Positions 2-18,735 of a DNA stretch of 61,339 bases are shown piece after piece. A model generated the notes under the pieces. It was not told where the DNA came from and did no database searches. It worked only from the letters and a program-made list of their open reading frames with translations. The stretch is taken from NCBI GenBank assembly GCA_903836515.1, contig CAILQW010000061.1:1-61339 (forward strand). Reading direction: 5' to 3'. Made by a program: the position numbers and the translations under genes. The stretch's first letter is position 1. Each line of letters opens with the position of its first letter. This stretch comes from Candidatus Omnitrophota bacterium. Its GTDB lineage: Bacteria; Omnitrophota; Gorgyraeia; Zapsychrales; Fredricksoniimonadaceae.

Positions 2-3000
2 TGGGAAGACCTGAACCTGATGAACAGCCTGGGGATCAACTGGAACGACCTGCAGACGATGACGAATGCGGGGGTCAACTGGGGCGACATGCAGGCGATG
101 AGCGGCGCGGGTGTCAACTGGCAGAATATTGAAGTGATGAGCGACACGGGCGTGAACTGGAGCGATATTCAGACGATGGCCGCCGCGGGCGTCAACTGGT
201 ATGACATGCAGATGATGACATCGACCGGGATCAACTGGTCGGATATGTCGGTGTACACCAACCAGGCGATCAACTGGTCGGATCTTCAGACCTTGACCGA
301 ACAGGGCGTGAACTGGATGGATATGTCGGTGTTCAGCAACCAGGGGATCAACTGGTCGGATATCCAGGTGTTGAGCCAGCAGGGTGTCAACTGGTCGGAT
401 GTTGATGTATTGGCGAAGACAGGGGTCAATTGGTCGGATATCCAGGCGATGAGCGGCGCGGGCGTCAATTGGCAAAATATCGGGGTCATGAGCGATGCCG
501 GGATCAACTGGTCGGATATGGATGTCCTGGCACAAACGGGGATCAATTGGTCGGATGTGGGCATATTGAGCACAACGGGCATCAACTGGTCGGATATGTC
601 AGTCTTCAGCCACCAGGGCGTGAACTGGTCGGATCTTCAGGTCATGACCGAGCAGGGTGTGAACTGGTCGGATATCGATGTGCTGGCCAAGGCCGGGATC
701 AACTGGTCGGATATGGAGGTGCTGAGCACCATCGGTTTAAACTGGGGCGATATGGCGGCGATGACCTCTTCGGCGGTTAACTGGAGCGATCTGCAGGTCA
801 TGAGCGATGTGGGTGTCAACTGGCAGGATGTCGAGGCCATGAGCGCGGCCGGAGTCAATTGGGATGATCTGGGCCATATGGCCGCCACAGGCATCAATTG
901 GTCGGACATGCAAGTGCTTAGCGAACAGGGTGTGAATTGGACGGATATGTCGGTATTCAGTAACCAGGGGATCAACTGGGCGGACATCCAGGTGCTGAGT
1001 CAGCAGGGCGTGAACTGGTCCGATATCGATGTGCTGGCCAAGGCCGGGATCAATTGGTCCGATATGGATGTGTTGAGTACGGCGGGGCTCAACTGGAGCG
1101 ATATGACCGTGATGTCTTCTTCCGGGTTGAACTGGAATGACATGCAGGTCATGAGTTCTTCGGGTGTCAATTGGGAAGATTTGAATCACATGAGTACCGT
1201 GGGCGTCAACTGGGAAGATTTGAACCTGATGAACAGCCTGGGCGTTAATTGGAACGATCTTGAGTCCATGACCAATGCCGGCATCAATTGGCATGACATG
1301 CAGGCGATGACCTCCACCGGGGTTAACTGGTCCGATATGTCGGTGTACACCAACCAGGCGATCAACTGGGCGGATCTTCAGGCCTTGACCGGGCAGGGCG
1401 TGAACTGGATGGATATGTCGGTCTTCAGCAACCAGGGGATCAACTGGTCGGATATCCAGGTGCTGAGTCAGCAGGGCGTGAACTGGTCCGATATCGATGT
1501 GCTGGCCAAGACGGGGATCAACTGGTCGGATATTCAGGTGTTAAGCCAGCAGGGCGTGAACTGGTCCGATATCGATGTCTTGGCCAAGACAGGGATCAAT
1601 TGGTCGGATATGGGTGTTTTGAGTGCGGCCGGGGTGAACTGGAGCGACATGCAGGCGATGAGCGGTGCGGGGGTGAACTGGCAGAATATCGAGGTGATGA
1701 GCGATGCCGGGATCAACTGGTCCGATATCGATACGATGACTACGGCGGGCGTCAATTGGTCCGACCTTCAGACGATGAGCATGACCGGTGTCAACTGGGT
1801 TGACATGTCGGTGTTCAGCAACCAGGGGATCAACTGGTCCGATGTTGAGGTGTTGAGCCAGCAGGGCGTGAATTGGTCAGACCTGGATGTATGGACGAAG
1901 ACCGGCATCAACTGGTCCGATATCCAGGTCATGAGTGCGCAGGGCGTGAACTGGTCGGATATGGATGTGCTGGCCAAGACCGGGATCAACTGGTCGGATA
2001 TCCAGGCGTTGAGCCAGCAGGGGATCAACTGGTCGGATTTCCAGGTGATGACCGGGCAAGGTGTGAACTGGACGGATATGTCGGTGTACACCAACCAGGG
2101 GATCAACTGGTCCGACATCCAGGTGTTAAGTCAGCAGGGTGTGAATTGGTCCGATATCGACGTTCTGGCCAAGACCGGGATCAACTGGTCCAACCTTGAA
2201 ACCATGACGGATGCGGGGGTCAATTGGTCGGATCTTGATATGCTGACAACCCGTGGCGTCAACTGGGACGATATCACGGTCATGAGTGCTTCCGGTGTGA
2301 ACTGGGAAGATTTGAATCATATGAGCACGGTGGGTGTGAACTGGGAAGACCTGAATTTGATGAACAGCCTGGGGGTAAACTGGAACGACCTGGAGGCTAT
2401 GACCAATGCCGGTGTCAACTGGGGCGACATGCAGGCCATGAGCAGCACGGGTGTCAACTGGCAGAATATCGAGGTGATGAGTGATGCGGGCGTCAACTGG
2501 GGCGACCTGCAGGCTCTGACCGCCGCCGGGGTGAACTGGTCCGACCTGCAGGCGATGACGGCGTCCGGGGTGAACTGGACCGATATGTCGGTCTACACCA
2601 ATCAGGCGATCAACTGGTCGGATCTAGAGGTGTTGAGCCAGCAGGGCGTGAACTGGTCGGATGTTCAGGTGTTGAGTCAGCAGGGCATCAACTGGTCGGA
2701 TATTGATGTGCTGGCCAAGACCGGGGTCAACTGGACGGATATTGATGTGCTGGCCAAGACCGGGATCAACTGGTCGGATATGGGTGTCCTGAGTGCGGCC
2801 GGAGTCAACTGGAGTGATATGCAGGCGATGACCCTGGCGGGGATCAACTGGAGCGACATGCAGGCGTTGAGCGCTTCGGGCGTCAACTGGTCCGATTTGA
2901 ATATCATGACAGATGCCGGGATCAACTGGTCTGACTGGAGTACCATGACCAATATCGGGGTCAACTGGTCGGATCTTCAGGCAATGGCCGGCATCGGCGT

Positions 3001-5686
3001 GAACTGGTCCGATCTTGAGGTGATGAGTGTTAATGGCGTGAACTGGTTTGACCTGGCGGCGATGACCACCAATGTCTTGAATTGGGCAGACCTTTCCACC
3101 ATGACACAGGCTTCTGTCAATTGGCAGGATATGGCGGTTTTCAGTGCATCCGGTGTCAACTGGGCAGACCTTTCCATGATGGCCACGGCGGGTATCAATT
3201 GGTCTGACATGCAGGCGATGAGCGACATGGCGATCAACTGGGCTGATTGGCAGGTTTTGTCGGGACAGGGTGTCAACTGGAGCGATATCGGGGTCATGTC
3301 TGCGGCCGGCATGAACTGGTCCGGCATGGCCTACATGACGACTACGGGTGTGAACTGGGATGATCTGGCGGGTCTTTCCAGGGCAGGGGCGAACTGGCAG
3401 GATTTTGAGGTGATGTCGGACATCGGGGTCAACTGGGACAGCTTCAGCGGCATGACCAATGCCGCTGTTAACTGGGATGATTTTGTGACCCTGACCCGAC
3501 TGGGGATCAACTGGCAGGATATCGATGCCATGTCGAATGCGCAGGTCAACTGGCAGGACATGAACCAGATGACGACCCGCGGCGTCAACTGGGATGACCT
3601 GACGGTCATGACCGATGCGGGTGTCAACTGGAACGATATTGTTACGATGTCGGCGGCAGGTGTCAATTGGGACGATATGACAGCCATGAGCGCGATGGGG
3701 GTCAACTGGTCCGACATGCAGGCCATGACCGATGCGGGTGTCAATTGGGATGATGTTTCCACGCTTACTAACCAGGGTGTCAACTGGTCGGATATCCAGG
3801 TGTTGAGCCAGCAGGGTATCAATTGGTCGGATATCGATGTGCTGGCCAAGACCGGCATTAACTGGTCGGATATCCAGGTGCTCAGCCAGGAAGGTGTCAA
3901 TTGGTCGGATATCGGGGTTTTAGCGGGGACCGGAATCAATTGGTCGGATATTGCGGCCATGGCAGGTACAGGTGTCAACTGGACGGACCTCGAGGCTTTG
4001 AGCGCGGCCGGGATCAACTGGTCGGACATGTCGGTTTTTACGGGCCAGGGGATCAATTGGGCGGATATGGAGACATTGAGTACCCAGGGGATCAACTGGT
4101 CTGATATCCAGGTATTGAGCGCCCAGGGCATCAATTGGTCGGATATCGATGTGCTGGCCAAGACGGGTATCAACTGGTCGGATATCCAGGCCTTCAGCCA
4201 GGAGGGGATCAACTGGTCTGACCTGCAGTTTATGACGGATGCGGGGGTCAACTGGTCGGACATCCAGGTCATGAGCCAGGGCGGGGTCAATTGGGATGAT
4301 CTGCAGCAGATGACCGTGACAGGCTTAAACTGGTCCGATCTCCAGGTGATGACTGATCTTGGCATCAACTGGGGCAATATGGAAGAAATGCTGGGCACGG
4401 GCGTCAACTGGTCTTCGCTGGCCGGGATGTCCCTGACAAGCGTCAACTGGGATGATATGGCCGCCATGACCACCGACGGCGTGAACTGGATGAGCCTTGC
4501 ACAAATGTCAGAGGCCGGGGTGAACTGGGCCAGCGTTGACGTGATGACAGCTTCCGGTGTGAACTGGGATGATGTGGCCCTGCTGACAACCACAGGGGTT
4601 AATTGGGACAGCCTGCAGTTTATGAGCAATGCGGGTGTGAACTGGGATGATATCCAGGCTATGTCCTCCACCGCTGTCAACTGGGACGGTTTGCAGACCG
4701 TCAGTGAAACAGGTGTCAACTGGAGCGATCTGGGGGTCATGACCAACCAGGGGATGAACTGGGAGAATCTTACGGTGATGACGGCCTCCGGCATGAATTG
4801 GGAAGATCTCCAGGCCTTGACCACGACGGGCGTGAACTGGGACAATTTCAGCGCCATGTCCAACGACGGCATCAACTGGTCGGCGTTGGGAGTTATGACG
4901 GAGAGTGCTGTCAATTGGGATGATCTGAGCGTTCTGACCGGCGCCGGGATGAACTGGGCCAATATGAATGATATGACAACGGTGGGGGTCAACTGGGCTA
5001 ATTTGAGCGAGCTGACGGTCGCGGCTGTGAATTGGGACGAGTTCGGGGCCATGTCGGCGGCAGGGATCAACTGGATCAATATCAGCGAGATGTCCGAGAA
5101 TGCGGTCAACTGGAGCGGTGTGGCGGATATGGCGGCGGCCGGGATCAACTGGGGAGAGATCGGTCATCTTTCGGAATCCAATGTCAACTGGTCCGATCTG
5201 GGGGCCATGACCGATGCTGGCATCAACTGGTATGATATCGGTGTGATGAGTGACACCGGTGTCAACTGGGAAGGGATATCGGTCTTCAGTGCCGCCACGA
5301 TCAACTGGGAAGGGATCGGGGATATGAGTAACGGCGGCGTCAACTGGGCCAATATCGGAGAGCTTTCTGCCGCCGGGATCAACTGGGATGAGATTGATCA
5401 TCTTTCCCGTCAGGGCCTTAACTGGGACGAGATCGGTGAGTTGACGACCAGCGGCATTAACTGGAATGACATCGCCCAGATGACGGCGAGCGGTATTAAT
5501 TGGGATGATGTCACGGCCATGACAACGAGCACGGTCAACTGGTCCGATTTCTCCAGCATGACGGGATCCAGCGTCAATTGGGATGAGCTTGCCGAGTCGA
5601 CCACCAGCAATGTGAATTGGGCGGACATGTCCAGCATGACCCACCAGAACATTGATTGGAGCGAGATGAGCTATTTCTCGAAGAAC
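2..5686 (+). repeat. Coding tandem repeat, 39-nt period, 145 full units
   Basis: Trp codons fall at 41+39n from 41 to 5657 with no indel (hand-checked at 41, 1211, 2342, 5657). Confidence 0.95.
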
Positions 5687-6376
5687 GCCCGCACGCTTAT
5701 CAGCGAGATGGATGCAGTGTACACCAGGATCGGGTCTGTCACGGATACCAGTTCTGCTAATACCCTTTTTGGCAGGATACAGAAAATACTGGATGCGGTG
5801 GGGTCAAGCGACCTGTCGACGATCATAGCGACGCTCGGGAAAGCCACGGATGCGGGCACGGCCGGAACGATCTTCGGGGACATCAACAATATCCAGTCGT
5901 CCCTCGGTACAAGCACCACGTCTTCCACCGTATTCTCCCAGATGGATACCATCCAGGGCTATGCCAAGAAAGGCAAAGACAGTGCGGATGCGGCGCTCGG
6001 TGTGGCCAAGAATATCCAGGAAGACCTGGGTGTCAACGGCGAAACGCCCAGTGCTTATCAGAAACTGAAAGATCTCGAAACGTATATCAAGGACATCCAG
6101 GCGTCGGCCCTGGCCATGGGCAACAAGCAGGATGTCACCGGTGATCTTGCCCAGCAGATGATCGACATGGTCAAGAATTTCATCAACCGCCAGGCCGAGC
6201 TGGCCGGTATCGCCACCAGCGGCCTTGCGGTGGAAGGCCTCTCCGGGAAAAATGCGGGCGATATGGATAAGGTCAACGAGAAGCTTGAAGAGATCGATGC
6301 CAAGATCCTGGCCCTGCGTGAAGCCATGAAGCTTGATGATGTGGTGGTGAAGACCTGGTTTGAAAGCGAGGAATAA
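2..6376 (+). CDS. Giant 13-aa tandem-repeat protein (G-[VI]-N-W-x-D), 5'-truncated by the window edge; non-repetitive C-terminal ~240 aa
   Basis: Frame is open from base 2 (WEDLNLMNSLG...), so the true start lies upstream. 145 units, then a helical/coiled-coil tail ending VVKTWFESEE. Next gene starts 3 nt after the stop. Confidence 0.9.
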   Translation, partial: WEDLNLMNSLGINWNDLQTMTNAGVNWGDMQAMSGAGVNWQNIEVMSDTGVNWSDIQTMAAAGVNWYDMQMMTSTGINWSDMSVYTNQAINWSDLQTLTEQGVNWMDMSVFSNQGINWSDIQVLSQQGVNWSDVDVLAKTGVNWSDIQAMSGAGVNWQNIGVMSDAGINWSDMDVLAQTGINWSDVGILSTTGINWSDMSVFSHQGVNWSDLQVMTEQGVNWSDIDVLAKAGINWSDMEVLSTIGLNWGDMAAMTSSAVNWSDLQVMSDVGVNWQDVEAMSAAGVNWDDLGHMAATGINWSDMQVLSEQGVNWTDMSVFSNQGINWADIQVLSQQGVNWSDIDVLAKAGINWSDMDVLSTAGLNWSDMTVMSSSGLNWNDMQVMSSSGVNWEDLNHMSTVGVNWEDLNLMNSLGVNWNDLESMTNAGINWHDMQAMTSTGVNWSDMSVYTNQAINWADLQALTGQGVNWMDMSVFSNQGINWSDIQVLSQQGVNWSDIDVLAKTGINWSDIQVLSQQGVNWSDIDVLAKTGINWSDMGVLSAAGVNWSDMQAMSGAGVNWQNIEVMSDAGINWSDIDTMTTAGVNWSDLQTMSMTGVNWVDMSVFSNQGINWSDVEVLSQQGVNWSDLDVWTKTGINWSDIQVMSAQGVNWSDMDVLAKTGINWSDIQALSQQGINWSDFQVMTGQGVNWTDMSVYTNQGINWSDIQVLSQQGVNWSDIDVLAKTGINWSNLETMTDAGVNWSDLDMLTTRGVNWDDITVMSASGVNWEDLNHMSTVGVNWEDLNLMNSLGVNWNDLEAMTNAGVNWGDMQAMSSTGVNWQNIEVMSDAGVNWGDLQALTAAGVNWSDLQAMTASGVNWTDMSVYTNQAINWSDLEVLSQQGVNWSDVQVLSQQGINWSDIDVLAKTGVNWTDIDVLAKTGINWSDMGVLSAAGVNWSDMQAMTLAGINWSDMQALSASGVNWSDLNIMTDAGINWSDWSTMTNIGVNWSDLQAMAGIGVNWSDLEVMSVNGVNWFDLAAMTTNVLNWADLSTMTQASVNWQDMAVFSASGVNWADLSMMATAGINWSDMQAMSDMAINWADWQVLSGQGVNWSDIGVMSAAGMNWSGMAYMTTTGVNWDDLAGLSRAGANWQDFEVMSDIGVNWDSFSGMTNAAVNWDDFVTLTRLGINWQDIDAMSNAQVNWQDMNQMTTRGVNWDDLTVMTDAGVNWNDIVTMSAAGVNWDDMTAMSAMGVNWSDMQAMTDAGVNWDDVSTLTNQGVNWSDIQVLSQQGINWSDIDVLAKTGINWSDIQVLSQEGVNWSDIGVLAGTGINWSDIAAMAGTGVNWTDLEALSAAGINWSDMSVFTGQGINWADMETLSTQGINWSDIQVLSAQGINWSDIDVLAKTGINWSDIQAFSQEGINWSDLQFMTDAGVNWSDIQVMSQGGVNWDDLQQMTVTGLNWSDLQVMTDLGINWGNMEEMLGTGVNWSSLAGMSLTSVNWDDMAAMTTDGVNWMSLAQMSEAGVNWASVDVMTASGVNWDDVALLTTTGVNWDSLQFMSNAGVNWDDIQAMSSTAVNWDGLQTVSETGVNWSDLGVMTNQGMNWENLTVMTASGMNWEDLQALTTTGVNWDNFSAMSNDGINWSALGVMTESAVNWDDLSVLTGAGMNWANMNDMTTVGVNWANLSELTVAAVNWDEFGAMSAAGINWINISEMSENAVNWSGVADMAAAGINWGEIGHLSESNVNWSDLGAMTDAGINWYDIGVMSDTGVNWEGISVFSAATINWEGIGDMSNGGVNWANIGELSAAGINWDEIDHLSRQGLNWDEIGELTTSGINWNDIAQMTASGINWDDVTAMTTSTVNWSDFSSMTGSSVNWDELAESTTSNVNWADMSSMTHQNIDWSEMSYFSKNARTLISEMDAVYTRIGSVTDTSSANTLFGRIQKILDAVGSSDLSTIIATLGKATDAGTAGTIFGDINNIQSSLGTSTTSSTVFSQMDTIQGYAKKGKDSADAALGVAKNIQEDLGVNGETPSAYQKLKDLETYIKDIQASALAMGNKQDVTGDLAQQMIDMVKNFINRQAELAGIATSGLAVEGLSGKNAGDMDKVNEKLEEIDAKILALREAMKLDDVVVKTWFESEE

Positions 6377-6379
6377 CCA

Positions 6380-7711
6380 ATGGGGCTGCGTACAGGGGTG
6401 TCCGGCAGGGGGTGGGGTATTCTTGCCGCTTCCTTTTGGGGGCTCGTCCTCCTTGTCCCTTTGGCGTATGCTGACATTGTGATCAATGTCCTGGCAGTCA
6501 ATGGGACGGACCAGCCTCAGAAAAAGAATATCGAATTCAGCCTCCCGGGAGAACTGAAGCCCGAGGATGTTGTTGATAATGCCGGGCTTCAGCTTGATTA
6601 TAATGTCAAGGATGCCGGGTATTTCCTGCACGGCGATGTTGATCTTCAGTCCAAGGAGACAAAGACCTTCCGGGTCCATGTGCGTGATGTCTGGCGTATC
6701 GGCGATACCGCAGTGGGCGCGCTGCGCGATGACATCGAGCGCGGGTACAGGGAAATGGGCGGCGAGCGCGATGCCGCCAATGCCGGGAAGCTCCGTCAGA
6801 AACTGATCGACAAGCTTGATTATATCCTTGCAGAACAGGACAGGTCTGCCGGCAACATCGATGCGCGCATCGATGCCTACCGCAATCATACCCAGACCAT
6901 TGCAGGGATCAGGGCCAAGGCCAAGCTCATCGACTACTGGCGCACCGATGCCGCCATTGCAGATCCGGCCAAGGTCATTAATTTTCTGGTCCAGGTCGAG
7001 AATCCGGGCGAGAAGACCAAGAAGGTCAAGCAGCAGCACTATCTTCCCGCCGAAGTCAGGCCCGAGTATATCACCGACCGCCAGGGTTTCGAGATCCGTT
7101 TCGATGAGAAAAAAGGACAGCCTTTCCTTTTCAGGGAGGATGATTTTGCTCCCGGTGAAAAACGGAAGGTTTCTATCGCCATCCAGGATGTCTGGTTTGT
7201 CCCGGAGAACGAGCTTCAATATGTCCGGGGGCACGCCAAGTACGCCATGGGTGACCTTCAGAAATCAAAGTACATTGATACCGCCAAGGCGCTTTTTAAT
7301 GATATCATCAATAATCTCGATCTGATCGATGCGCTTCAAAAGACGCTCCAGCCGGACATTGAACAGCATATCGGCGCCTACCGTCTTAATGCGGTCAGGT
7401 TCGAGCAGGCGAAGAAGGATCTTGACGCGCTGGAGAAGCTTTTGTCCAGGTTCCGTGCGGACAGGGAAAAAAGCAAGATCAAGAACGTGATGCAGAAGAT
7501 ACAGACCCTGAAGTCCCTGGCCAAGGTTTCCGAAGCGATCCTCGACAAGAAACCGACCGTGAACGCGGCCTGGAAACTGATCGGGTCCGTGATGCTCTTC
7601 CTCGCATTTTTCACGACCATTTATTTCATCACATGGTTTTTCCGCTCTTCCCGGGAGAAAAAACAGGAAGAGATCAAGTACGGCCAGAAGAAAGATGAAG
7701 CGCGCGGTTAA
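6380..7711 (+). CDS. Exported protein with signal peptide, two tandem ~167-aa domains and a C-terminal TM anchor; function unknown
   Basis: N-terminal hydrophobic stretch ending LAYA. Motifs LPxExxPE, DVW and AYR each recur 501 nt apart. TM LIGSVMLFLAFFTTIYFITWFF followed by a basic tail. Confidence 0.85.
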   Translation: MGLRTGVSGRGWGILAASFWGLVLLVPLAYADIVINVLAVNGTDQPQKKNIEFSLPGELKPEDVVDNAGLQLDYNVKDAGYFLHGDVDLQSKETKTFRVHVRDVWRIGDTAVGALRDDIERGYREMGGERDAANAGKLRQKLIDKLDYILAEQDRSAGNIDARIDAYRNHTQTIAGIRAKAKLIDYWRTDAAIADPAKVINFLVQVENPGEKTKKVKQQHYLPAEVRPEYITDRQGFEIRFDEKKGQPFLFREDDFAPGEKRKVSIAIQDVWFVPENELQYVRGHAKYAMGDLQKSKYIDTAKALFNDIINNLDLIDALQKTLQPDIEQHIGAYRLNAVRFEQAKKDLDALEKLLSRFRADREKSKIKNVMQKIQTLKSLAKVSEAILDKKPTVNAAWKLIGSVMLFLAFFTTIYFITWFFRSSREKKQEEIKYGQKKDEARG

Positions 7712-7729: not shown

Positions 7730-9214
7730 ATGAGCATTAAACTGCAGTATACGGAAGTCGGCGTGGTCAAGGCGATCAGGGGCTGTATTGTCATTGTGAC
7801 AGGGCTGTCCAATTGCATCAACGGCCAGCTCATCCGTTTCGGTTACGGCACGTTGGGGATGGTGGTCGGGTTCACGCAGGATGAGGCGCAGGTTCTTATC
7901 CTCAAGGAATCCTCCAAGATCCGTACCGGGGATGAAGCCAATGCGGCGATCGAGCCGCTGGTCACGCCGGCCGGCAAGAATTTTATCGGGCGTATCGTCA
8001 ATCCGCTGGGGGAACCCCTGGACGGGCTGGGCCCCATCGAGGCAGATGTCATGGTCCCGATATTTCCCGAGTCGCCGCCGATCCTCGACCGTCAGCCGTT
8101 GAACAAGACCCTGGAGACCGGCATCAAGGTGCTTGATGCCATGATCCCTATCGGACGGGGTCAGCGGGAGCTGATCCTGGGCGATAAAATGACCGGCAAG
8201 ACCACGTTTGTGACCGATACCATCGTGAACCAGAAGGGCAGCGGGGTCATTTGCATCTACTGTTCCATCGGCAAGGCCCGTGCTTCCATGGCCAAAGTCG
8301 TCCAGCTTTTCAAGGATCGCGGCTGTTTCGATTACAGTATCATCGTGTCTGCGGCGGCATCGTCCACACCGGGACAGCAGTATCTGTCGCCGTATGTCGC
8401 CTGTTCTCTGGGGGAGTATTTCATGCAGCGGGGCATGGACGTGTTCATCGGGTTTGACGATTTCACCAAACACGCCTGGTGTTACCGCGAGATTTCCCTG
8501 CTCCTGGGCCGTCCGCCGGGGCGCGATTCCTATCCGGGAGACATTTTTTATCTCCATTCCAAGATGATCGAGCGCTCCTGCTTTCTCAGCAAGGAGAAGG
8601 GCGGCGGATCCATGACGTTTTTTCCGATCGTCGAGATCCTCGAGGGCGACCTGACCGCCTTTGTGCCTTCGAACCTGGTGTCCATGACCGACGGCCAGAT
8701 CTACCTGAGTTCACAGTTATTCGGGGAGGGCCAGAAACCCGCGCTCGACCTGGGGCTTTCGGTTTCGCGTGTCGGATCCAAGGTCCAGTGGTCCGCGATC
8801 AAGTCCCTTTCGGGCCCGTTGCGCCTGGAATATCTCCAGTACCGCGAACTGCTGAGGCTTTCGAAACTGAAGACCTCCGGCCAGTCCGAGGAAATGAAAC
8901 AAAAACTCAAGCGCGGCGCGATCCTGACCGCCATTCTCCGGCAGGACAAGGACTCCCCGGTCTGCCAGGAGATGCAGGTCCTGATCTTTTATGCGTTCAA
9001 CAAGAAATACTTGAACGATCTCTCCATCGAGCAGGTCAATGCGTTCCAGGACACATGCCTGGATTATGTGGTCAGGAACAAGCCTGAGTTCATGGCGCTG
9101 ATGCGCGAACGGCGCAAACTGGACCCCGAGATCGAGAAAATGCTTGATGAGATGATCAAGGGGCTTGTCATGGGCATCGTGGAACAGACCATGGCCAAGT
9201 CCGACCGCGGTTAA
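7730..9214 (+). CDS. atpA: F-type ATPase alpha-like subunit (divergent, short N-terminus)
   Basis: ETGIKVLDAMIPIGRGQRELILGDKMTGKT, DDFTKHA..YREISLLLGRPPGRDSYPGDIFYLHS, TDGQIYL, SVSRVG (Arg finger). Confidence 0.93.
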   Translation: MSIKLQYTEVGVVKAIRGCIVIVTGLSNCINGQLIRFGYGTLGMVVGFTQDEAQVLILKESSKIRTGDEANAAIEPLVTPAGKNFIGRIVNPLGEPLDGLGPIEADVMVPIFPESPPILDRQPLNKTLETGIKVLDAMIPIGRGQRELILGDKMTGKTTFVTDTIVNQKGSGVICIYCSIGKARASMAKVVQLFKDRGCFDYSIIVSAAASSTPGQQYLSPYVACSLGEYFMQRGMDVFIGFDDFTKHAWCYREISLLLGRPPGRDSYPGDIFYLHSKMIERSCFLSKEKGGGSMTFFPIVEILEGDLTAFVPSNLVSMTDGQIYLSSQLFGEGQKPALDLGLSVSRVGSKVQWSAIKSLSGPLRLEYLQYRELLRLSKLKTSGQSEEMKQKLKRGAILTAILRQDKDSPVCQEMQVLIFYAFNKKYLNDLSIEQVNAFQDTCLDYVVRNKPEFMALMRERRKLDPEIEKMLDEMIKGLVMGIVEQTMAKSDRG

Positions 9215-9228
9215 GGAAAGGGGCCGGC

Positions 9229-9495
9229 ATGGCGTCATCGTATACCGGAACATTTCGCTGTGTGATCCTCAGCGCCAAACAATTGATCTTTGAGGGCGAG
9301 GTGAACAGCGTTTTTATTTCCGGCGACCGCGGCGAGTACGAGCTTTTAGCCTATCATTACCCCTTGATCGGGATCGTGGCCGGGGATGTGGTCCTGGACT
9401 GGGATAAACGCCTTGTGGTCAAGGGCGGTGTTGTCAGGTTTTTCGCGAACGAATGCACGATCATGATTGAAGAAAAACAGGTCGCATCCGAATGA
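9229..9495 (+). CDS. atpC: F-type ATPase epsilon-like subunit, N-terminal beta domain only
   Basis: FRCVILSAKQLIFEGEVNSVFISGDRGEYELLAYHYPLI matches the epsilon N-terminal pattern. 88 aa, no C-terminal helical hairpin. Confidence 0.8.
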   Translation: MASSYTGTFRCVILSAKQLIFEGEVNSVFISGDRGEYELLAYHYPLIGIVAGDVVLDWDKRLVVKGGVVRFFANECTIMIEEKQVASE

Positions 9496-9546
9496 AGAGG
9501 CGTTTCCCCGGCAGGGGATGCGGGCGATAACCAGAAAAGGGAAGGT

Positions 9547-9768
9547 ATGCTGGCAGAAACATTCATTATCCTGATGGTTATGTTCATCGCGGTCCTGGGT
9601 CCGTCTTTGGTTATTTCGGTGCTGGGGTACGCGGTCATCATGGCGTTAAGCCGCAACCCGTCCGCGGCGTCCAAGATTTTCATGGGCATGGCGATCATGC
9701 TGGTGTTCGTCGAGGCGATCTCGATCATTTCGATCCTGATCATTTTTCAGCTTTTTTCGGCAAAATAA
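9547..9768 (+). CDS. atpE: F-type ATPase c-like subunit
   Basis: 73 aa, two TM helices, loop SRNP, conserved carboxylate in FVEA. Confidence 0.85.
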   Translation: MLAETFIILMVMFIAVLGPSLVISVLGYAVIMALSRNPSAASKIFMGMAIMLVFVEAISIISILIIFQLFSAK

Positions 9769-9809
9769 GTTCTGCGGCCGGGGACAGGGCCTGCGGGAGG
9801 GCATGATAC

Positions 9810-10046
9810 ATGGGCGAGCGGTTCATCTATTGGAATGAAGGCCTGGTCTTTATAGGGCTCTTGACGTTCATCGTCGGTGTCCCTTGCCTGGCGGTGGCCA
9901 TTCTCGGGACCCGGCTTATCAACCATATCGGCCGTTATCCCACCAAAAGCGCACGGCTGCAGATGGGTATTTGCAGCCAGCTTCTGGTCATTGTGATCTT
10001 TTCCTTCTTTCTGTTGGCGTTATTTTTTCATGTTTTCTCAGATTAA
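9810..10046 (+). CDS. Second c-like subunit lacking the ion-binding Glu
   Basis: 78 aa, two TM helices, loop GRYP. Aligns without gaps to the preceding c subunit, with Val at the Glu position. Confidence 0.65.
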   Translation: MGERFIYWNEGLVFIGLLTFIVGVPCLAVAILGTRLINHIGRYPTKSARLQMGICSQLLVIVIFSFFLLALFFHVFSD

Positions 10047-10060
10047 CCAAGGAGTTTAAG

Positions 10061-10816
10061 ATGAACGTCCAGTTAATGGTTGGTTTTGTGCTCAGTCAGG
10101 TCGTCGTGTTCGGCGCTATCCTGGGGCTCCTTTATTATTTCTATGTTTCGCAGACGGACGGGGCCAAACAGCGCCTTGAGCGCGATGCGGAAGCCGCCCG
10201 CGCCCGCGAGGCTGAGCTTAACCGCAAGATCAAGGCTGCGGACGAGGAGCTTGCCGCCCGCCGGAAGGAGCTCGACCAGCTTGAACAGAAAATGAAGATC
10301 GAACTCGAGGCCGAGTCGGCCAAGCACCGGGAAGAGCTGGTCCAGAAGGCCCGCGCGGAAGCGGAAGAGATCATCACCAAGGCCCAGAACGCCGCTGACG
10401 GCATCAGGCGCGATATCGAGAAACAGATGGAACTGAAGATCATCGATCATTCCGTTAATATTCTGGGCGGGGTGTTGACCCGCGGGGCCAGGGTCTCCCT
10501 GGAGAAAGACCTTCTCGAGGAGTTCATCGAACAGTTGAAGAACGTGGACATGTCCCGGATCAGCCTGGACATCAAGAAAGCGGATGTGATCACGTCGGCC
10601 GGGCTGGGCGATACGGATGTCAAGCGCATCAGCGATATCATCAGGGCCAAGACCGGGCGGGACATTGCCCTTAACGCCAAGACCGATGACGCCCATGTGG
10701 CAGGGGTTGTGATCCACTTCGGGAGTCTGCAGCTTGACGGGAGCATTAAAGCGGCGGTCAGGGATGCGGCCTCTGCGCTCAAGGCCGATGTCGAGAAGTC
10801 TTCACAGAAAAAATAA
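10061..10816 (+). CDS. atpF: F-type ATPase b-delta fusion subunit
   Basis: RBS AAGGAG then ATG at 10061. N-terminal TM, long coiled coil, C-terminal delta-like segment (VITSAGL...VAGVVIHFGSLQLDGSI). Confidence 0.82.
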   Translation: MNVQLMVGFVLSQVVVFGAILGLLYYFYVSQTDGAKQRLERDAEAARAREAELNRKIKAADEELAARRKELDQLEQKMKIELEAESAKHREELVQKARAEAEEIITKAQNAADGIRRDIEKQMELKIIDHSVNILGGVLTRGARVSLEKDLLEEFIEQLKNVDMSRISLDIKKADVITSAGLGDTDVKRISDIIRAKTGRDIALNAKTDDAHVAGVVIHFGSLQLDGSIKAAVRDAASALKADVEKSSQKK

Positions 10817-10849: not shown

Positions 10850-13175
<2,326 letters not shown>

Positions 13176-13177: not shown

Positions 13178-14899
13178 ATGCTGAAGCCCGCTGTCAACAA
13201 GACCGTCGGCGAGATCCTTGTCAAGCGTGCTCTTCTTGACGAGGACGGGATGAAGCAGGCCTGTGCGCAGGCCCGTCACGAGAATCTGCGCCTCACCGAC
13301 TACCTGGTCCGTGCCGGTATCCTTAAGGCCCGGGACATCCTTGATGCCCTGTGCGCCGGGATCCCCTGTGATGCTGTGGACTTAAAAGCGCTCGCCATCG
13401 ATAAAAGTGTCATTGAGCGCGTCCCCGTCAAGTTTGCTTCGTATTACCGGTTCATGCCCTTGGCCATCGAAGGGCAGAAGCTGACCCTGGCGGCTTCCGA
13501 GCCGCTCGATATCCATACCCAGGACGATATCCGCGCTCATCTGGGCCTCGAACCCAAGTGCGTTTTGGCCAGCGCCTGGGATGTGGAGGAAGCCCTGAAG
13601 AAATATTACGGGTTCGCTTCGGACACCATCGACAGGATATTGACCCGTGATCCCAAACGTTTCCGCGAACAATCCGGTGATCATGCGGCGATCGAGGATA
13701 TCGAGCGCCAGAGCGAGGACCCGACGGTCACGAAGCTCGTCAATGAGATCATCCTGGAAGCCTACCAGAAGCGCGCCACCGATATTCATATCGAGCCTTA
13801 CCGCAACAGGGTCCGTTTCCGTTACCGCATCGACGGGGTCCTGATCGATGCCAATCTGCCGCCGGAAGCGCGGCATTTTCTGGCCGCCATTCTTTCGCGC
13901 ATCAAGATCATGGCTGAACTGAGCATCACCGAAAAACGCAAGCCGCTCGACGGGAGCGCGGTGGTGCGCGTGGGCGGGCAGGCTTTGGACTTGAGGGTGT
14001 CGACCATTCCTGCCCTGCACGGGGAAAGCATGGTTATCCGCCTTCTGCCGACCACATCGGAGCTCCTTAACCTTGAGAAGCTCGGCTTTAACGCGGATAA
14101 TGCCCGGCGTTTCCGCGATCTTGTCCGGCGTCCCCACGGGGTGGTCTTTGTGACCGGGCCTACGGGCAGCGGCAAGACAACGACCCTTTACGCGTGCCTG
14201 AACGAGATCAACGACCCTTCCCGCAAGATCATCACCATCGAGGATCCCGTAGAGTACGAGATGGACGGCATCACGCAGATCCAGGTGAACGCGGATGTCA
14301 ATTTCAGCTTTGCCGACGGACTTCGCAGCGTCCTGCGTCATGACCCTGATATCCTGATGGTGGGTGAGGTGCGCGACACGGAGACCGCCAACATCGCCAT
14401 CCGTACGGCCCTCACCGGGCATCTTGTTTTTTCATCCCTTCATACCAACGATGCGGCCAGCGCCGTGACGCGCCTGGTGGACATGGGAGTTGAACCCTAC
14501 CTGGTCGCCTCGAGTGTCCAGGCGTTTGTGGCCCAGCGGCTCGTCCGGGTCATTTGCCCGCACTGCCGGGAAGAGGATGCCTCATCCCTGACGGATATCC
14601 GCCAGGAGATCGCCCGCAGCCTTGGCGATGTCGAGGCCTCCCGGGTTGTCATTTTTCGGGGTCGTGGCTGTGATGCCTGCAATAATACGGGGTATTACGG
14701 GCGGACAGCCATTTACGAGATATTGGAACTTGACGAGCAGATCCGGGCCGTTATCCTGGACAAGCCACGGGCCGAGGAGATCCGGCGTATCGCCATTGAG
14801 CGCGGTATGCGCACCCTGCGCCAGGACGGATGGAAGAATGTGGCCAACGGGGTGACCACTCCGGCGGAAGTCATGAACGTGACCATGAAAGAGGATTGA
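13178..14899 (+). CDS. gspE: T2SS/T4P assembly ATPase (GspE/PilB family)
   Basis: GPTGSGKTTT, TIEDPVEY, LRHDPDILMVGEVRD, TGHLVFSSLHTND, CPHC...CDAC zinc motif. Confidence 0.95.
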   Translation: MLKPAVNKTVGEILVKRALLDEDGMKQACAQARHENLRLTDYLVRAGILKARDILDALCAGIPCDAVDLKALAIDKSVIERVPVKFASYYRFMPLAIEGQKLTLAASEPLDIHTQDDIRAHLGLEPKCVLASAWDVEEALKKYYGFASDTIDRILTRDPKRFREQSGDHAAIEDIERQSEDPTVTKLVNEIILEAYQKRATDIHIEPYRNRVRFRYRIDGVLIDANLPPEARHFLAAILSRIKIMAELSITEKRKPLDGSAVVRVGGQALDLRVSTIPALHGESMVIRLLPTTSELLNLEKLGFNADNARRFRDLVRRPHGVVFVTGPTGSGKTTTLYACLNEINDPSRKIITIEDPVEYEMDGITQIQVNADVNFSFADGLRSVLRHDPDILMVGEVRDTETANIAIRTALTGHLVFSSLHTNDAASAVTRLVDMGVEPYLVASSVQAFVAQRLVRVICPHCREEDASSLTDIRQEIARSLGDVEASRVVIFRGRGCDACNNTGYYGRTAIYEILELDEQIRAVILDKPRAEEIRRIAIERGMRTLRQDGWKNVANGVTTPAEVMNVTMKED

Positions 14900-14904
14900 T
14901 CCCG

Positions 14905-16119
14905 GTGCCGGTATTTATTTATAAAGCCAAGAAAGAAGATGCCGTGACCGTGACGGGGGAAGTCACGGCGCGCGATGCCGACGAGGCCCTGGACATGGTG
15001 GTCCGCCAGGGCTTGCTGCCGGTCAGTGTCGATGAAAAGGGGGCCAATGCCCTTCCCGGTGCTGTCCGGGGGCAGGGGGTCAAGCCGCGCCAGATCCATG
15101 CCTTTACCCGTCAGCTGGGGAGCCTGCTCAGGTCGGGCGTTCCTCTGCTGAGGGCGCTTGAGGTCCTCGCACGCCAGATGCATGCGCCCCGTGACGCGCA
15201 TTTCGCGGGCATTGTCCGTGATGTGGCGCTCAATCTGCGCAACGGCCGTTCATTTTCAGCCTGTCTCGCCGAGCATCCCCGGGTGTTCGCGGATATTTAT
15301 GTCACCATGGTCCGCGCCGGTGAGGAAAGCGGGCGGTTGAAAGAAGTTCTCGAAAGCCTGGCCGTCTACGAACGCAAGCAGGATGAAATCGCCCGCCAGG
15401 TACGCGGCGCCCTGGTGTATCCGGCGTTCATGCTGATGGTGGGGGTGTGTACCGTTTTCTTTATCCTGAGTTTTGTGATGCCCAAGATCGCTGTTCTTTT
15501 TGAAGGTATGCGTGTCGCCCTGCCGTGGCCGACCCGGTTTGTCATGGGCTTAAGCCGGGCTGTCCGCGTGGCGTGGCCCGTATTGCTGGGCCTGGCCATG
15601 GCCGCGGCCGCGGGCGCGCGTTTTATGGCCCTGGCCCCGCAGATCCGCCGCAGGTTCATGGCGTTTGTGGCCGCGCTGCCCTTCATCCGTGAATTCACGG
15701 TCAAGACGGATATGGAACGTTTTGCCCGCACCCTGGCCCTGCTTTTGGGGAGCGGTGTCCCGATCCTCAAGGCCCTGGAGACGGCGGTGCCATCCCTGGC
15801 GTATGAGCCGTTGCGGCGGGAGCTTTCCCTTTGCCAGGAGCGTGTGGCGGGCGGCGCATCCCTGGGGGCGTGCCTGCGCGAATCGCCGCATATTCCCGAC
15901 ATCATGGTGCAGATCATCGCGATTGGCGAGGAAACCGGGGAACTGGCCGGGTCGCTTAAGGACGTTGCCGATACGTATGAACAGGAGATCGCCGAAACCA
16001 CCCGTTCGATGACGACGCTCCTGGAACCGCTCCTGATCCTGGCTGTGGGGCTTGTGGTGGGATTTATTGTCCTGGCGATGCTGCTGCCCATCTTCCGGAT
16101 GGACATGTTCGCTTCCTGA
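14905..16119 (+). CDS. gspF: T2SS/T4P inner-membrane platform protein (GspF/PilC)
   Basis: GTG start after GAGGA gives MPVFIYKAK. FTRQLGSLLRSGVPLLRAL, MVRAGEESG, IAIGEETGEL, three TM segments. Confidence 0.93.
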   Translation: MPVFIYKAKKEDAVTVTGEVTARDADEALDMVVRQGLLPVSVDEKGANALPGAVRGQGVKPRQIHAFTRQLGSLLRSGVPLLRALEVLARQMHAPRDAHFAGIVRDVALNLRNGRSFSACLAEHPRVFADIYVTMVRAGEESGRLKEVLESLAVYERKQDEIARQVRGALVYPAFMLMVGVCTVFFILSFVMPKIAVLFEGMRVALPWPTRFVMGLSRAVRVAWPVLLGLAMAAAAGARFMALAPQIRRRFMAFVAALPFIREFTVKTDMERFARTLALLLGSGVPILKALETAVPSLAYEPLRRELSLCQERVAGGASLGACLRESPHIPDIMVQIIAIGEETGELAGSLKDVADTYEQEIAETTRSMTTLLEPLLILAVGLVVGFIVLAMLLPIFRMDMFAS

Positions 16120-16217
16120 TTTATTATTTTTACACCCCGAATTTTTTCAGTTGTGGTATTTTTATTACATCAGCAGGGCGATGCCTTTGCTTGGGATAAC
16201 CATCAGGGAGGTTCGAT

Positions 16218-16643
16218 ATGATTGACGGCACAACCATGTTTCGGCGCCGGGGGTTCACGCTCATCGAGATCATGCTTGTGGTCATCATCATCGGGGCGCT
16301 GGCCGCGATGATCGTCCCGCGCCTGGCGGGGCGTTCCGAACAGGCCAAGGCCGCGGTCGCTAAAGCGGACCTGATGAACATCGCCACGGCGCTTAAGCTT
16401 TATGAGCTGGATAACGGGGGATTTCCTGCTACGGCCCAGGGGCTTGCTGCCTTGCGCGAACGACCTTCCGGTGCGCCCGTTCCCCGGAACTGGAACGGCC
16501 CTTACCTTGAAAAAGACCCTGTGGATCCGTGGGGGAATGCGTATATTTATGCCGCACCGGGAACGCACCGCCCGGATTATGACCTTTCATCCAGGGGCAA
16601 GGATGTGGCTTCAGCGGATGATGATGTTGTCAACTGGCAGTAG
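16218..16643 (+). CDS. gspG: Major pseudopilin GspG
   Basis: RBS GGAGG. G|FTLIEIMLVVIIIG prepilin motif, LKLYELDNGGFP, WNGPYL...DPWG. Confidence 0.93.
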   Translation: MIDGTTMFRRRGFTLIEIMLVVIIIGALAAMIVPRLAGRSEQAKAAVAKADLMNIATALKLYELDNGGFPATAQGLAALRERPSGAPVPRNWNGPYLEKDPVDPWGNAYIYAAPGTHRPDYDLSSRGKDVASADDDVVNWQ

Positions 16644-17064
16644 CCGTTCCCGGCGCCGGCAGGGCATCACCTTCATTGAAGTGATGCTGGCGGTGGTCAT
16701 CCTGTCGGGAGGGCTTGTGGCGCTTTACCGGTGTTTCTTTTCCGCCGTGGATTATCTGGACCGCCTGTCCACGCGGCTGTATGCGTTCAATCTCCTTGAA
16801 GGGCGTATGGCCGCGGTCGAGAAAGAGTTTCGTTCCCCGAAGGATTTTGATATCGGTCTGCTGGATGAAGAAGTCGTGATCAACAACCGTCCCGTGGCGT
16901 TCCATTATAATGTTAACCTGAAACCTGTGGGCACCCTCCTGTCGGTCTTTGAACTGGACATGGACCTTTCGTGGCAGGAGCGCGGGCGCCGTGTCACGCT
17001 TTCGCGCACGGCCTATGTTTCAGGTGTCACCGCCATATCCCCGGCGGAAGGGAAGGGAACCTGA
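16621..17064 (+). CDS. Minor pseudopilin, GspI-like
   Basis: RRQG|ITFIEVMLAVVIL prepilin motif. Start ambiguous among ATGs at 16618, 16621 and 16624. Confidence 0.78.
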   Translation: MMLSTGSSRSRRRQGITFIEVMLAVVILSGGLVALYRCFFSAVDYLDRLSTRLYAFNLLEGRMAAVEKEFRSPKDFDIGLLDEEVVINNRPVAFHYNVNLKPVGTLLSVFELDMDLSWQERGRRVTLSRTAYVSGVTAISPAEGKGT

Positions 17065-17651
17065 TGCGCCGGCGCGCCTTCACCTTTATCGAGATCATGC
17101 TGGTAGCGGCTCTTTTTGCCATTCTGTCGACCGCCATTTTTACGTGTCTGCTTAACGGGATCAGGCTCTCGGACCGGGCCCGCCAGATGATGTCCGGAGA
17201 GGATTCGCTTATTTTCTTCGACCGCATGGCCTCGGACCTGCGCAACACGTTTCATTTTGCCAACATCGATCTAGCCGGTGAAGAGGGGCGCATGGCATTC
17301 CCGTGCGTTGTCTGGACGCCGGCCGACCGTGTGAGCATGCGTGCCCCTGAAGGCGTTGTCGACCAGATCGGCCGTGTGGCGTATGATTATGATCCTGTGC
17401 GTGAAGCTGTGGTCCGCCGCCAGGCCAATTATTCCCAGGCGATGGCCGGGGGGTGGGGGGCTGACACGGTGCTGGTCAAGGGGGTCAAGGGGCTGCGCTT
17501 CCGTTATTTTCACGGCGTATCCGGCGAAGCGTCCACGCACCTGGAACCCACGGACGAGATACCTTCCGGTGTTGAGGTCGAACTCCATGTGATCCAGGCG
17601 GGAGAAGAACGGGTGCTCAAACGTTATATCGCTATTCCGGCGGGGGTGTAA
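17064..17651 (+). CDS. Minor pseudopilin, GspJ-like
   Basis: TGATG overlap with the upstream gene. MRRRA|FTFIEIMLVAAL, RMASDLRN. Confidence 0.8.
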   Translation: MRRRAFTFIEIMLVAALFAILSTAIFTCLLNGIRLSDRARQMMSGEDSLIFFDRMASDLRNTFHFANIDLAGEEGRMAFPCVVWTPADRVSMRAPEGVVDQIGRVAYDYDPVREAVVRRQANYSQAMAGGWGADTVLVKGVKGLRFRYFHGVSGEASTHLEPTDEIPSGVEVELHVIQAGEERVLKRYIAIPAGV

Positions 17652-18671
17652 ATGGCGGTCGTGAGGCGGCATGGTTTTATCCTGATCACCGCGTTATGGA
17701 CGCTGACCTTCTTGTCGGTTCTGGCGGTGATGCTGTTGGCCGGGGTCCGCCAGAGGATTGTTCTTTTTCAGCGCCTTGAGGACCGTGCCCGTGTGCAGGC
17801 TGCGGCAGAAGCCGGGGTCAAGAAGGCGGAGGCCATGACGCTTGATGCCCTGGAGGATCCCTCCGTGGCGGCCGTTGTGGTCAAACAGCGCCTGCACAAC
17901 AATCCTGCAGAATTCGCCGGCATGGATGTCGGAGGGGTTGCCGTCGAGGTTGTCCCTGATGCGCTGGATCCGGGCACGGGGGCCGTGGGCACGGCGTGGG
18001 GGGTGGCGGACGAGCAGTCAAAGATCAACTTAAACACGTCTTCCCGCGAGATCCTGGCCCGCCTGGTGACCGAGGCTCTCGGCTGGAACGGGGTCGAGGC
18101 ACGCGCCCTGGCTGATGCCATCGCCGACTGGCGGGATTACGGCCAGCATAGCACGGAGGGTTTTTTCAACGATGATTATTACAAAAGCCTCGAATTTCCT
18201 TATCCGATGAAAGATGCGGTGTTCGCACGGCCCGACGAGCTGCTGCTGGTGAAAGGGGTCAATGCAAAGATCTACGAAACATTACTGCCCTTCATCACCG
18301 TCTACGGGGACGGGCATGTCAATATCAATACAGCCTCGCGCCAGGCCCTTGTTGCCCTGGGACTTGATGTCCCGCTTGCCCAGAAGCTTGTGCGCTTCCG
18401 CCGGGGCGCAGACAACCTTGAGGCGACCGCCGATGATCATGTTTTTGCGCGGACATTCGATGTTGCCGCCGATATTGCCGGGAGTGTCAAGCTTGACCCG
18501 TCAGAGGTCCGCCAGATCGACGACCTTAACGCCCGCGACCTGTTGACGTCCGAGTCGGGTATTTATGCGTTTATCAGCCGTGTGCCCGCATCCGCCGGCG
18601 GGTACAAGCGGTCCATCGCGTGTGTTTTCAGTGTTTTTGAGAGCCGTGTCCTCTACTGGTATGAAAAATAA
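17652..18671 (+). CDS. gspK: Minor pseudopilin GspK
   Basis: RRHG|FILITALW (no E5), DEQSKINLNT, LLLVKGV, NINTAS. Confidence 0.88.
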   Translation: MAVVRRHGFILITALWTLTFLSVLAVMLLAGVRQRIVLFQRLEDRARVQAAAEAGVKKAEAMTLDALEDPSVAAVVVKQRLHNNPAEFAGMDVGGVAVEVVPDALDPGTGAVGTAWGVADEQSKINLNTSSREILARLVTEALGWNGVEARALADAIADWRDYGQHSTEGFFNDDYYKSLEFPYPMKDAVFARPDELLLVKGVNAKIYETLLPFITVYGDGHVNINTASRQALVALGLDVPLAQKLVRFRRGADNLEATADDHVFARTFDVAADIAGSVKLDPSEVRQIDDLNARDLLTSESGIYAFISRVPASAGGYKRSIACVFSVFESRVLYWYEK

Positions 18672-18682
18672 TCAATTTTATG

Positions 18683-18712
18683 TTGAAGCCCTTTAAAGAC
18701 ATAGTCTATAAT
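18683..18712 (+). promoter_or_regulatory. Putative sigma70 promoter internal to the T2SS cluster
   Basis: TTGAAG-18-TATAAT in the only AT-rich gap between gspK and the GspL-like gene. Confidence 0.55.
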
Positions 18713-18735
18713 GGTGCCATTAAAGATCGGATCTT

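Follow-up and report, generated by a model that had tools for sequence, protein, structure and literature searches.

What would a very small bacterium do with a protein in which a 13-residue unit recurs at least 145 times? The question is raised by the opening of a 61,339-nucleotide (nt) stretch of DNA from a Candidatus Omnitrophota bacterium (contig CAILQW010000061.1, assembly GCA_903836515.1), here called the window. Omnitrophota are widespread, uncultured and ultra-small, with other cells thought to be their hosts or prey. Our answer, held with slightly more confidence than doubt, is that nt 2-6376 form the 3′ portion of a genuine gene, whose product would be secreted, fibrous and very long, and that this product is the fibre of a "symbiotic ATPase/pilus" apparatus. 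The window's part of the gene, 2,124 amino acids (aa) in all, falls into three pieces:

2..31, + strand: truncated repeat unit, its last 10 residues (WEDLNLMNSL), cut by the window edge
32..5686, + strand: 145 complete 13-aa units, consensus G-[VI]-N-W-x-D-[ILM]-x-x-[ML]-[ST]-x-x, from translation and column counts
5687..6376, + strand: C-terminal tail, 229 aa plus stop, non-repeat, conserved in homologue alignments

The repeat array

Frame +2 holds a single open reading frame (ORF), which runs from nt 2 as far as the stop codon at 6374-6376. A first-pass annotation, made from the letters alone, had described 145 phased 13-residue units with no indel, an almost invariant Asn-Trp, no Pro or Cys, and few basic residues; translation and column counts agree with it on every point. 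Each in-phase Trp is followed 13 residues later by the next, throughout the array, and the five additional Trp residues all lie inside units. Asn-Trp (N-W) is present in 144 of the 145 units, and the final unit has Asp-Trp. At the start of the unit the counts are Gly1, 125/145; Val or Ile2, 134/145; Asn3, 144/145; Trp4, 145/145; and Asp6, 116/145. Position 7 holds I, L, M, V or F, position 10 is Met or Leu in 128/145, and position 11 is Ser or Thr in 123/145. Hydrophobic residues fill about one third of the unit. Met makes up 6.9% of the array, and its 26 basic residues (K13, R5, H8) face 222 acidic ones (D177, E45). Net charge per unit is about −1.4.

The array was also said to continue past the window edge, and it does: besides the partial unit at nt 2-31, the source contig (61,575 nt) begins 90 nt further upstream, likewise inside the array, leaving the gene open at its 5′ edge. 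The 145 units are a lower bound on the copy number of the gene.

Such regularity could reflect the DNA or the protein. Mean identity between units is 45% for protein and 58% for DNA, and because the DNA copies have diverged, Tandem Repeats Finder returned from the window only fragmentary arrays of 39, 78, 117 and 156 nt, with 63-83% match. Conserved residues are written in mixed synonymous codons (Gly: GGG 51, GGC 40, GGT 31; Asn: AAC 111, AAT 33; Asp: GAT 84, GAC 32). Entropy in the array has its minimum at codon position 2 and its maximum at codon position 3, so that it is the protein which is conserved, encoded in frame +2. By the same measure, the long ORFs that the array contains in further frames and on the other strand (for example 605 aa at 3331-5148, minus strand) were set aside as by-products of the repeat. 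Other samples yielded four contigs, each an independent assembly, that match window positions 2449-6376 base for base wherever they overlap them, including 3.9 kb of array. The array is a real coding repeat under protein-level selection, and is neither chance nor a recent DNA amplification.

A family of long, putative surface proteins

A word-indexed search found only five relatives. An exhaustive profile search over 1.84 billion representative proteins gave 523 matches at E ≤ 1e-3, 157 at E ≤ 1e-10, and 34 at E ≤ 1e-30. Of 28 matches inspected, eight of the weaker ones (E ≥ 3e-29) are unrelated repeats. The relatives form four groups:

Group (i), long proteins like that of the window: P0001 (2,809 aa, full length), with a signal peptide, a head of ~1,550 aa containing Ig_Rha78A_N domains, 78 units and the tail; and P0003, from an Omnitrophota metagenome-assembled genome, with a LamG head
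Group (ii), shorter proteins of the same plan: P0006-P0014 and P0020, among them P0010 (900 aa), full length with ~33 units
Group (iii), surface proteins: an M26_N/GLUG-like head with about ten looser units
Group (iv), phage tail-fibre-like proteins: INW units of 13-16 residues, with PHROG tail-fibre matches outside the repeat

Full-length homologues share one plan: a signal peptide; a variable, adhesin-like head (LamG, immunoglobulin (Ig)-like or β-helix-like); the array; and the conserved tail. Hydrophobic, signal-like segments stand at the N-termini of P0001, P0002 and P0006-P0014. Homologues P0001-P0003 and P0006-P0014 also have in common an irregularity within the array, AYM[ST]G[AS]GVNW[DTA]ETINWDNLA, which includes a 7-residue partial unit, and a few 15-residue IKAKTDTINW units ahead of the 13-mers; the window's 145 units lie C-terminal to such elements.

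The tail contains three [IL]G-x-x-[TS]D-x(5)-[LIV]FG motifs and a coiled-coil-like region, and ends in VV[VM]KT[WY]FE. Its profile makes weak matches to coiled-coil necks in the PDB. It is proposed to be the anchoring or oligomerisation end of the protein. When species-representative genomes were scanned with a three-sequence alignment of the tail (a four-sequence version was too divergent), 30 loci were recovered, almost all labelled Candidatus Omnitrophota or Omnitrophica. The repeat protein is so far almost confined to that phylum.

The register is kept across the family. In 25 related loci, the spacing from one N-W to the next is 13 residues in 2,469 of 2,494 cases (99%) and 26 in 11 more, and Pro accounts for 0.01% of residues across 2,602 units. 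The longest uninterrupted runs are 264 units, in locus L033, and 259 in the complete chromosome OY759724.1; the latter is a lower bound, as the run is still open at the edge of the 10-kb flank. In the closest relative, whose tail is 75% identical, at least 260 units are present, and the gene, which the end of the contig interrupts, encodes at least 3,832 aa. Copy number ranges across lineages from about 33 to over 260.

These arrays are also where assemblies fail. All 16 contigs that bear the downstream neighbour gene end inside the array, and contigs of 190 kb and 535 kb start in or at the repeat gene; L008 and L038 are among the loci affected. Because assemblies break at this point, gene lengths in databases are systematically too short, and protein collections often lack the truncated products altogether.

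Short and looser runs of G-[IV]-N-W-x-D, with units of 13-16 residues, occur in L040 (P0005), P0062, P0052 and L039 (P0004), which are phage tail-fibre-like proteins and surface proteins with a GLUG/M26_N head; no ATPase gene adjoins them. The N-W unit seems to be a general fibre module that extends beyond loci of the Omnitrophota type.

An invariant gene order

The genes that follow the repeat gene are these:

6380..7711, + strand: 443-aa neighbour, a bitopic membrane protein that follows the repeat gene in every locus
7730..9214, + strand: F-type ATPase subunit alpha (TIGR00962, 530 bits, cut-off 484)
9229..9495, + strand: short divergent epsilon subunit, 88 aa (NCBIfam and annotation)
9547..9768, + strand: c subunit, 73 aa, retaining the membrane carboxylate (FVEAIS)
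9810..10046, + strand: conserved 78-aa protein with two hydrophobic segments
10061..10816, + strand: b/delta (OSCP) fusion, a stalk subunit
10850..11704, + strand: divergent gamma subunit (66 bits, cut-off 194)
11733..13175, + strand: F-type ATPase subunit beta (TIGR01039, 530 bits, cut-off 463)
13178..21633, + strand: genes like those of type II secretion systems (T2SS) and type 4a pili (T4aP): GspE/PilB with an MshEN domain, GspF, a GspG-type major pseudopilin, minor pseudopilins, GspK, a PilM-PilN fusion, PilO/GspM and a TPR protein

The order tail, 443-aa protein, alpha, epsilon, c, 78-aa protein, b/delta, gamma, beta, GspE, GspF recurs in ~27 species-level loci (by tblastn of the window proteins against the fetched loci), and holds down to tail identities of 24-36%. 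Even the distant P0010, which has a different upstream neighbour, is still followed by a 466-aa homologue of the 443-aa protein and by the ATPase. In L005-L007, the repeat gene has just upstream of it genes for an AAA ATPase, a GspC-like protein, a secretin and a TPR protein, and glycosyltransferase genes precede these. A stand-alone OSCP/delta-like gene for 125-128 aa (L006, 1-165; L007, 1297-1674) was also seen, upstream of a conserved GT2-DUF2304-methyltransferase-GT2 block, which in turn comes before the secretin genes.

The alpha and beta subunits pass the atpA and atpD models of NCBIfam; gamma, epsilon, c and b/delta score far under their cut-offs. No subunit a is annotated in the six loci examined, which include the window, L005, L006 and L038.

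The 443-aa protein belongs to a family of 86 homologues, all of them annotated "hypothetical". Its model (predicted local distance difference test score (pLDDT) 80) consists of an N-terminal signal or transmembrane (TM) helix, two copies of a β-sandwich followed by a three-helix bundle, a C-terminal TM helix, and a basic cytoplasmic tail. Family searches placed it in no family, and a fold search of the PDB gave no match at E ≤ 0.001 (all E > 0.1). It is proposed to be a membrane anchor or adaptor.

This gene order has a published counterpart. Seymour et al. (2023, Nat Microbiol, PMC10066038) described in Omnitrophota "symbiotic" loci that combine a non-respiratory F-type ATPase with a type-4a pilus, and proposed that they serve attachment to and motility on host cells. 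The window belongs to the same phylum, and its ATPase genes (7730-13175) directly adjoin GspE (13178), inside the 10 kb used to define such loci. The difference lies in the genes ahead of the ATPase: the published account mentions neither the repeat protein nor its 440-aa neighbour, and the word "repeat" is absent from its text. These two genes are the newly recognised, invariant first genes of the ATPase block in the published locus.

A model for the proposed fibre

From the location of its gene, with the outer-membrane secretin module on one side and the 440-aa protein, the ATPase lacking subunit a, and the T2SS/T4aP genes on the other, the repeat protein is therefore proposed to be the fibre of the ATPase/pilus apparatus. 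The Sec-type signal segments of homologues, together with the position of the gene inside a secretion cluster, are features that would be expected of a surface protein dependent on a T2SS or secretin. Hundreds of units would make up an acidic rod of ~0.1-0.5 micrometre, a length comparable to that of the cell. The rod would separate a distal, lineage-variable, N-terminal binding head from a proximal, conserved, coiled-coil-like tail. Export would be by Sec, followed by passage through, or retention at, the secretin system; the tail would anchor the fibre, possibly to the 440-aa bitopic protein; and the fibre could then reach and hold host or prey cells. The suggestion in the first-pass annotation of a long spacer or surface fibre fits what the homologues add to it: signal peptides, adhesin-type heads, a conserved tail, and a secretion/pilus context.

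Several points weigh against this model. Export, surface location, anchoring to the 443-aa protein, and coupling to the ATPase are putative, and conserved gene order can persist without physical interaction. Alpha and beta score as ordinary atpA and atpD products; the operon might be no more than the ATP synthase of the cell, whose subunit a would then be encoded at another site. A classical T2SS is poorly suited to a folded rod that greatly exceeds the periplasm in length. The window does not reach the N-terminus of the protein, whose head and signal peptide are predicted from homologues at 35-45% identity. Finally, the structural model of the array, described next, offers packing without confidence, and leaves rigidity and shape unproven.

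Structure of the 13-residue unit

Sixteen units were modelled as a monomer with AlphaFold2, using a gapless alignment of 17 rows in register. Secondary structure assigned by DSSP comprises one helix of 8-10 residues per unit, from Trp4 to about position 13 (residues 4-13, 17-25 and so on), with 3-5 residues between helices. The overall model is poor (pLDDT 44.9; predicted template-modelling score (pTM) 0.22). Foldseek, run on this weak model, returned only designed helical repeats and TALE-like proteins, all at E > 0.001, which were not used as evidence.

Covariation offers a second view, independent of the model. Mutual information was computed over 2,395 distinct unit triples (2,212 distinct units); an in-register alignment of 137 slices from 19 loci served for statistics only. 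The strongest covarying pairs of positions, namely 6-9, 8-12, 5-9, 5-8, 9-12 and 9-13, are all spaced i,i+3 or i,i+4, a pattern characteristic of an α-helix that spans positions 5-13. At positions 8 and 12, pairs of opposite charge are over-represented (K-E 4.0-fold, E-K 3.7-fold, D-K 2.8-fold). Positions 6 and 9 exchange their acid (S6-D9 5.8-fold, N6-E9 5.3-fold, with D6-E9 down to 0.23-fold), and one or the other is acidic in 89% of units. The short amphipathic helix plus turn that the first-pass annotation had inferred finds support in both the predicted secondary structure and the covariation, charge pairs included.

Taken together, the unit is most likely one short, capped α-helix followed by a Gly-hydrophobic corner. 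Established helix-capping rules, applied to the consensus, suggest the following roles:

Position 3, Asn: proposed N-cap
Position 6, Asp: proposed N3 partner of the capping box
Positions 2 and 7, hydrophobic: proposed N′-N4 hydrophobic staple
Position 1 of the next unit, Gly: proposed C′ residue of a Schellman motif
Position 10 with position 2 of the following unit, hydrophobic: proposed C3 to C″ contact of the Schellman motif

The two-residue Gly-hydrophobic connector would resemble an α-α corner, and would fix the geometry between successive helices. Any indel would alter that geometry, which would explain the constant length of the unit. The invariant Trp4 is the sole conserved position to which capping assigns no role; presumably it provides a seam, whether to the next unit, to another chain or to a ligand. 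Together with positions 7 and 10 it could build a continuous hydrophobic seam between units or chains.

By the same rules, the invariant Asn would be better read as a helix N-cap than as an Asn ladder of the β-solenoid type. A β-solenoid was set aside, the covariation being helical, and a leucine-rich repeat was rejected on inspection, as the spacing of hydrophobic residues and Asn does not fit the core of such repeats. Like α-helical solenoid proteins, the array has a tandem helix-turn unit, by the DSSP assignment of the model and by covariation.

Longer periods overlie the 13-residue one. In the window array, weak super-periods occur near 29-31 and 60 units, and suggest old block duplications. 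At the variable positions, units two apart resemble each other more than neighbours do, very strongly in L025, also in L033, L005 and P0001, and weakly in the window. This even-lag super-period hints at two alternating helix environments; block duplication could also give a super-period.

One chain or several?

The 16-unit model is too weak to show the rigid solenoid rod that the first-pass annotation had inferred, and leaves a fibre of several chains equally open. Such a fibre could have the same role. Parallel chains, three for example, would place their helices as layers of a bundle between non-helical corners, in the manner of a segmented or α/β coiled coil such as those of trimeric autotransporter stalks and phage tail fibres. 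We regard this arrangement, the main structural rival, as possible, and give it appreciable but clearly minority weight. It would account for the failure of the monomer prediction and for the coiled-coil-like nature of the conserved tail. Some proteins with PHROG tail-fibre matches contain loose N-W units, and phage tail fibres are trimers.

A close precedent is the α/β coiled coil of Hartmann et al. (2016, eLife, PMC4786415), in which a trimer is proven and a β-layer motif, [aliphatic]-A-T-K-polar-[DE], recurs with a period of 9 or 6. A period of 13 can be written as 9+4 or 7+6, which is the arithmetic of β-layer insertion. Both systems combine short helices with very short non-helical elements in fibrous surface proteins, and β-layers, too, use an N-cap with an acid three positions on. 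The N-W unit differs in its period of 13 and its motif G-[IV]-N-W-x-D. The canonical β-layer motif does not match the array: Gly precedes the hydrophobic residue, and the cap comes directly after it. Moreover, all of the covariation seen lies within one helix.

A binding surface or a disordered tether?

In the proposed fibre, the array holds a head at a distance. It might instead be chiefly a multivalent binding surface, in which Trp stacking and hydrogen bonds from Asn and Asp engage a repeating polymer, as in choline- or cell-wall-binding repeats. Candidate ligands would be a glycan of the host cell wall, an envelope polysaccharide of the bacterium itself, or the pseudopilus. The residues concerned are the right ones (Trp and Asn invariant, the acid nearly so, and Trp unexplained by capping), and glycosyltransferase genes flank the locus in relatives as well as in the window. 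Nevertheless we consider this unlikely: family and profile searches detected no similarity between the array and known carbohydrate-binding repeats; with only 4-5 hydrophobic residues per unit, Trp is needed for the core; and homologues already carry separate lectin-like heads (LamG).

Less probably still, the array might be an acidic tether or coat that is flexible and mostly without order (an entropic brush), with N-W-S/T sites that may be heavily N-glycosylated. The low pLDDT of the model and the net charge of each unit are what such a tether would give. The N-x-S/T sequon occurs in 75 of the 145 units, and the window also encodes an STT3/PglB-like oligosaccharyltransferase (26767-29298, minus strand). 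However, disordered linkers tolerate indels and Pro, whereas here spacing is exact in 99% of cases and Pro is nearly absent; in addition, the unit has motifs of the capping type and helical covariation. N-glycosylation was rejected as the cause of the invariant Asn, since the sequon is found in only 35% of units family-wide. Judging from the sequons and the STT3-like gene nearby, the fibre may still be N-glycosylated.

The Lysostaphin_N match

One curated family does claim the array. The whole window protein scores 209.6 bits against Pfam PF25533, Lysostaphin_N, whose cut-off is 60, and the same match is precomputed for P0001 and P0002. PF25533 describes the propeptide repeat of prolysostaphin, a tandem repeat with, like the N-W array, a period of exactly 13 residues. 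The propeptide array is short, about 14-15 copies.

The score does not survive dissection. The N-W consensus in nine copies reaches 23.7 bits, and 130 aa of native array reach 34.5 bits, both under the cut-off, whereas the prolysostaphin array, in the sequence that we take it to have, scores 137 bits per 117 aa. A column-permuted array, with the N-W motif destroyed and the period and composition kept, scores 189.7 bits, against 212.6 for the real array; of three permutations this one scores, and the other two and a full shuffle score nothing. Other repeats of period 13 cross-match as well. The N-W array profile finds tandem Myc tags (13 residues) as its sole match in the PDB, and in the large protein library it also takes in unrelated repeats, including a eukaryotic period-13 repeat, P0037. 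The prolysostaphin repeat, AEVETSKAPVENT, is unrelated, with Pro and without Trp, and no invariant residue is common to the two units. The score is a sum of many weak period-13 alignments, and homology is rejected.

Membership of the array in Lysostaphin_N, for which the whole-protein score speaks, can therefore be dismissed with near certainty: single stretches fall below the cut-off, and a permuted array keeps the score. The claim that this is an unrecognised repeat type had been made subject to the absence of a Pfam match; formally such a match exists, and it is an artefact, so that the claim stands. NCBIfam, PHROGs, the PDB and the rest of Pfam contain no entry that describes the N-W repeat, and motif strings of the unit (GINWSD and similar) have no occurrence in the searchable literature. 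The 13-residue N-W repeat is undescribed in curated families and searchable literature, and is a new repeat class among tandem-repeat fibrous surface proteins. Annotators should be cautious with such arrays, which break short-read assemblies and attract a false Lysostaphin_N label.

Comparison with other giant proteins

Long arrays of equal units are familiar from giant adhesins. Extender regions, such as the ~104-aa Ig-like repeats of Marinomonas MpIBP and those of SiiE and LapA, are likewise tandem arrays that project a binding head and vary in copy number by lineage. Their unit is a β-sandwich of about 100 residues, whereas the N-W unit would be a single helix of 13.

Giant genes beside secretion and pilus loci have been reported in Omnitrophota themselves, by West-Roberts et al. 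(2023, bioRxiv 10.1101/2023.11.21.568195) and in a 2026 preprint (10.64898/2026.06.07.730766). As here, the products are very long and poorly annotated, lie beside a secretion/pilus cluster, and are proposed to act in contact with prey or host. Those proteins have from more than 10,000 to 30,000 aa, many TM helices, SecA-like or multi-enzyme content, and known Pfam repeats. The repeat protein has at least 2,124 aa here and at least 3,832 aa in a relative, and neither its window part nor P0001 contains a TM segment or a SecA match; its 13-residue unit is described in neither paper. The sequence present thus lacks the features by which West-Roberts et al. define giant genes (>30,000 aa, numerous TM regions, and a divergent SecA DEAD domain).

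A motor-driven fibre?

In the gliding bacterium Mycoplasma mobile, which Seymour et al. also cite, an F1-like ATPase motor works with the giant surface leg proteins Gli349 and Gli521. The Omnitrophota loci resemble it in associating an F1-type ATPase with a very large protein that is proposed to act on host surfaces. They differ in much else: the sequences show no similarity; the cell envelope is of the Gram-negative type and includes a secretin and pseudopilins; subunits c, epsilon and b/delta are kept; and alpha and beta fail the NCBIfam models for Mycoplasma type-2/3 ATPases, gliding ones included (alpha scores 393 against glide_MMOB1660, cut-off 600, and 290 against MSC_0619_alpha, cut-off 520).

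The analogy permits a bolder, and in our judgement improbable, proposal: that the N-W fibre, the 440-aa protein and the ATPase lacking subunit a would be one machine, in which a rotary ATPase, rather than making ATP, drives or tensions a fibre of sub-micrometre length, with a T2SS/T4aP-like export channel. Such a machine would be to a Gram-negative cell what the F1-driven legs are to Mycoplasma mobile. Nanobacteria could then hold on to, or crawl over, host cells, and the array of capped helices would be a new mechanical element (a spring or a ratchet) rather than a passive spacer.

Implications

The published ATPase/pilus locus gains two invariant and previously unremarked components: a mini-helix repeat protein and its bitopic membrane partner. 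Together they provide a concrete, expressible candidate for a contact fibre, and make the question of attachment testable.

The unit itself deserves attention. Its 13 residues seem to be almost entirely signals for starting and stopping a helix, yet more than 260 copies follow each other without an indel, and they are conserved across the phylum. As a structured repeat it would rank among the shortest, and would offer a natural model for the design of minimal helical repeats.

Other genes in the window

From 15 to 24 kb downstream of the array, the window encodes GT2 glycosyltransferases and a UDP-GlcNAc 2-epimerase, along with the STT3/PglB-like protein. A second large ORF, at 45509-53860, encodes 2,783 aa. 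Its product is non-repetitive, with an N-terminal and a few internal hydrophobic segments, and its matches to peptidoglycan-binding domains are sub-threshold only. The genes on either side of it are ordinary chromosomal genes. At 41622-45075 these encode an SNF2 helicase and a SWIM-domain partner; at 54508-60545, a porin, a phosphate-type ABC transporter (binding protein, two permeases and ATPase), and a PhoU-domain protein.

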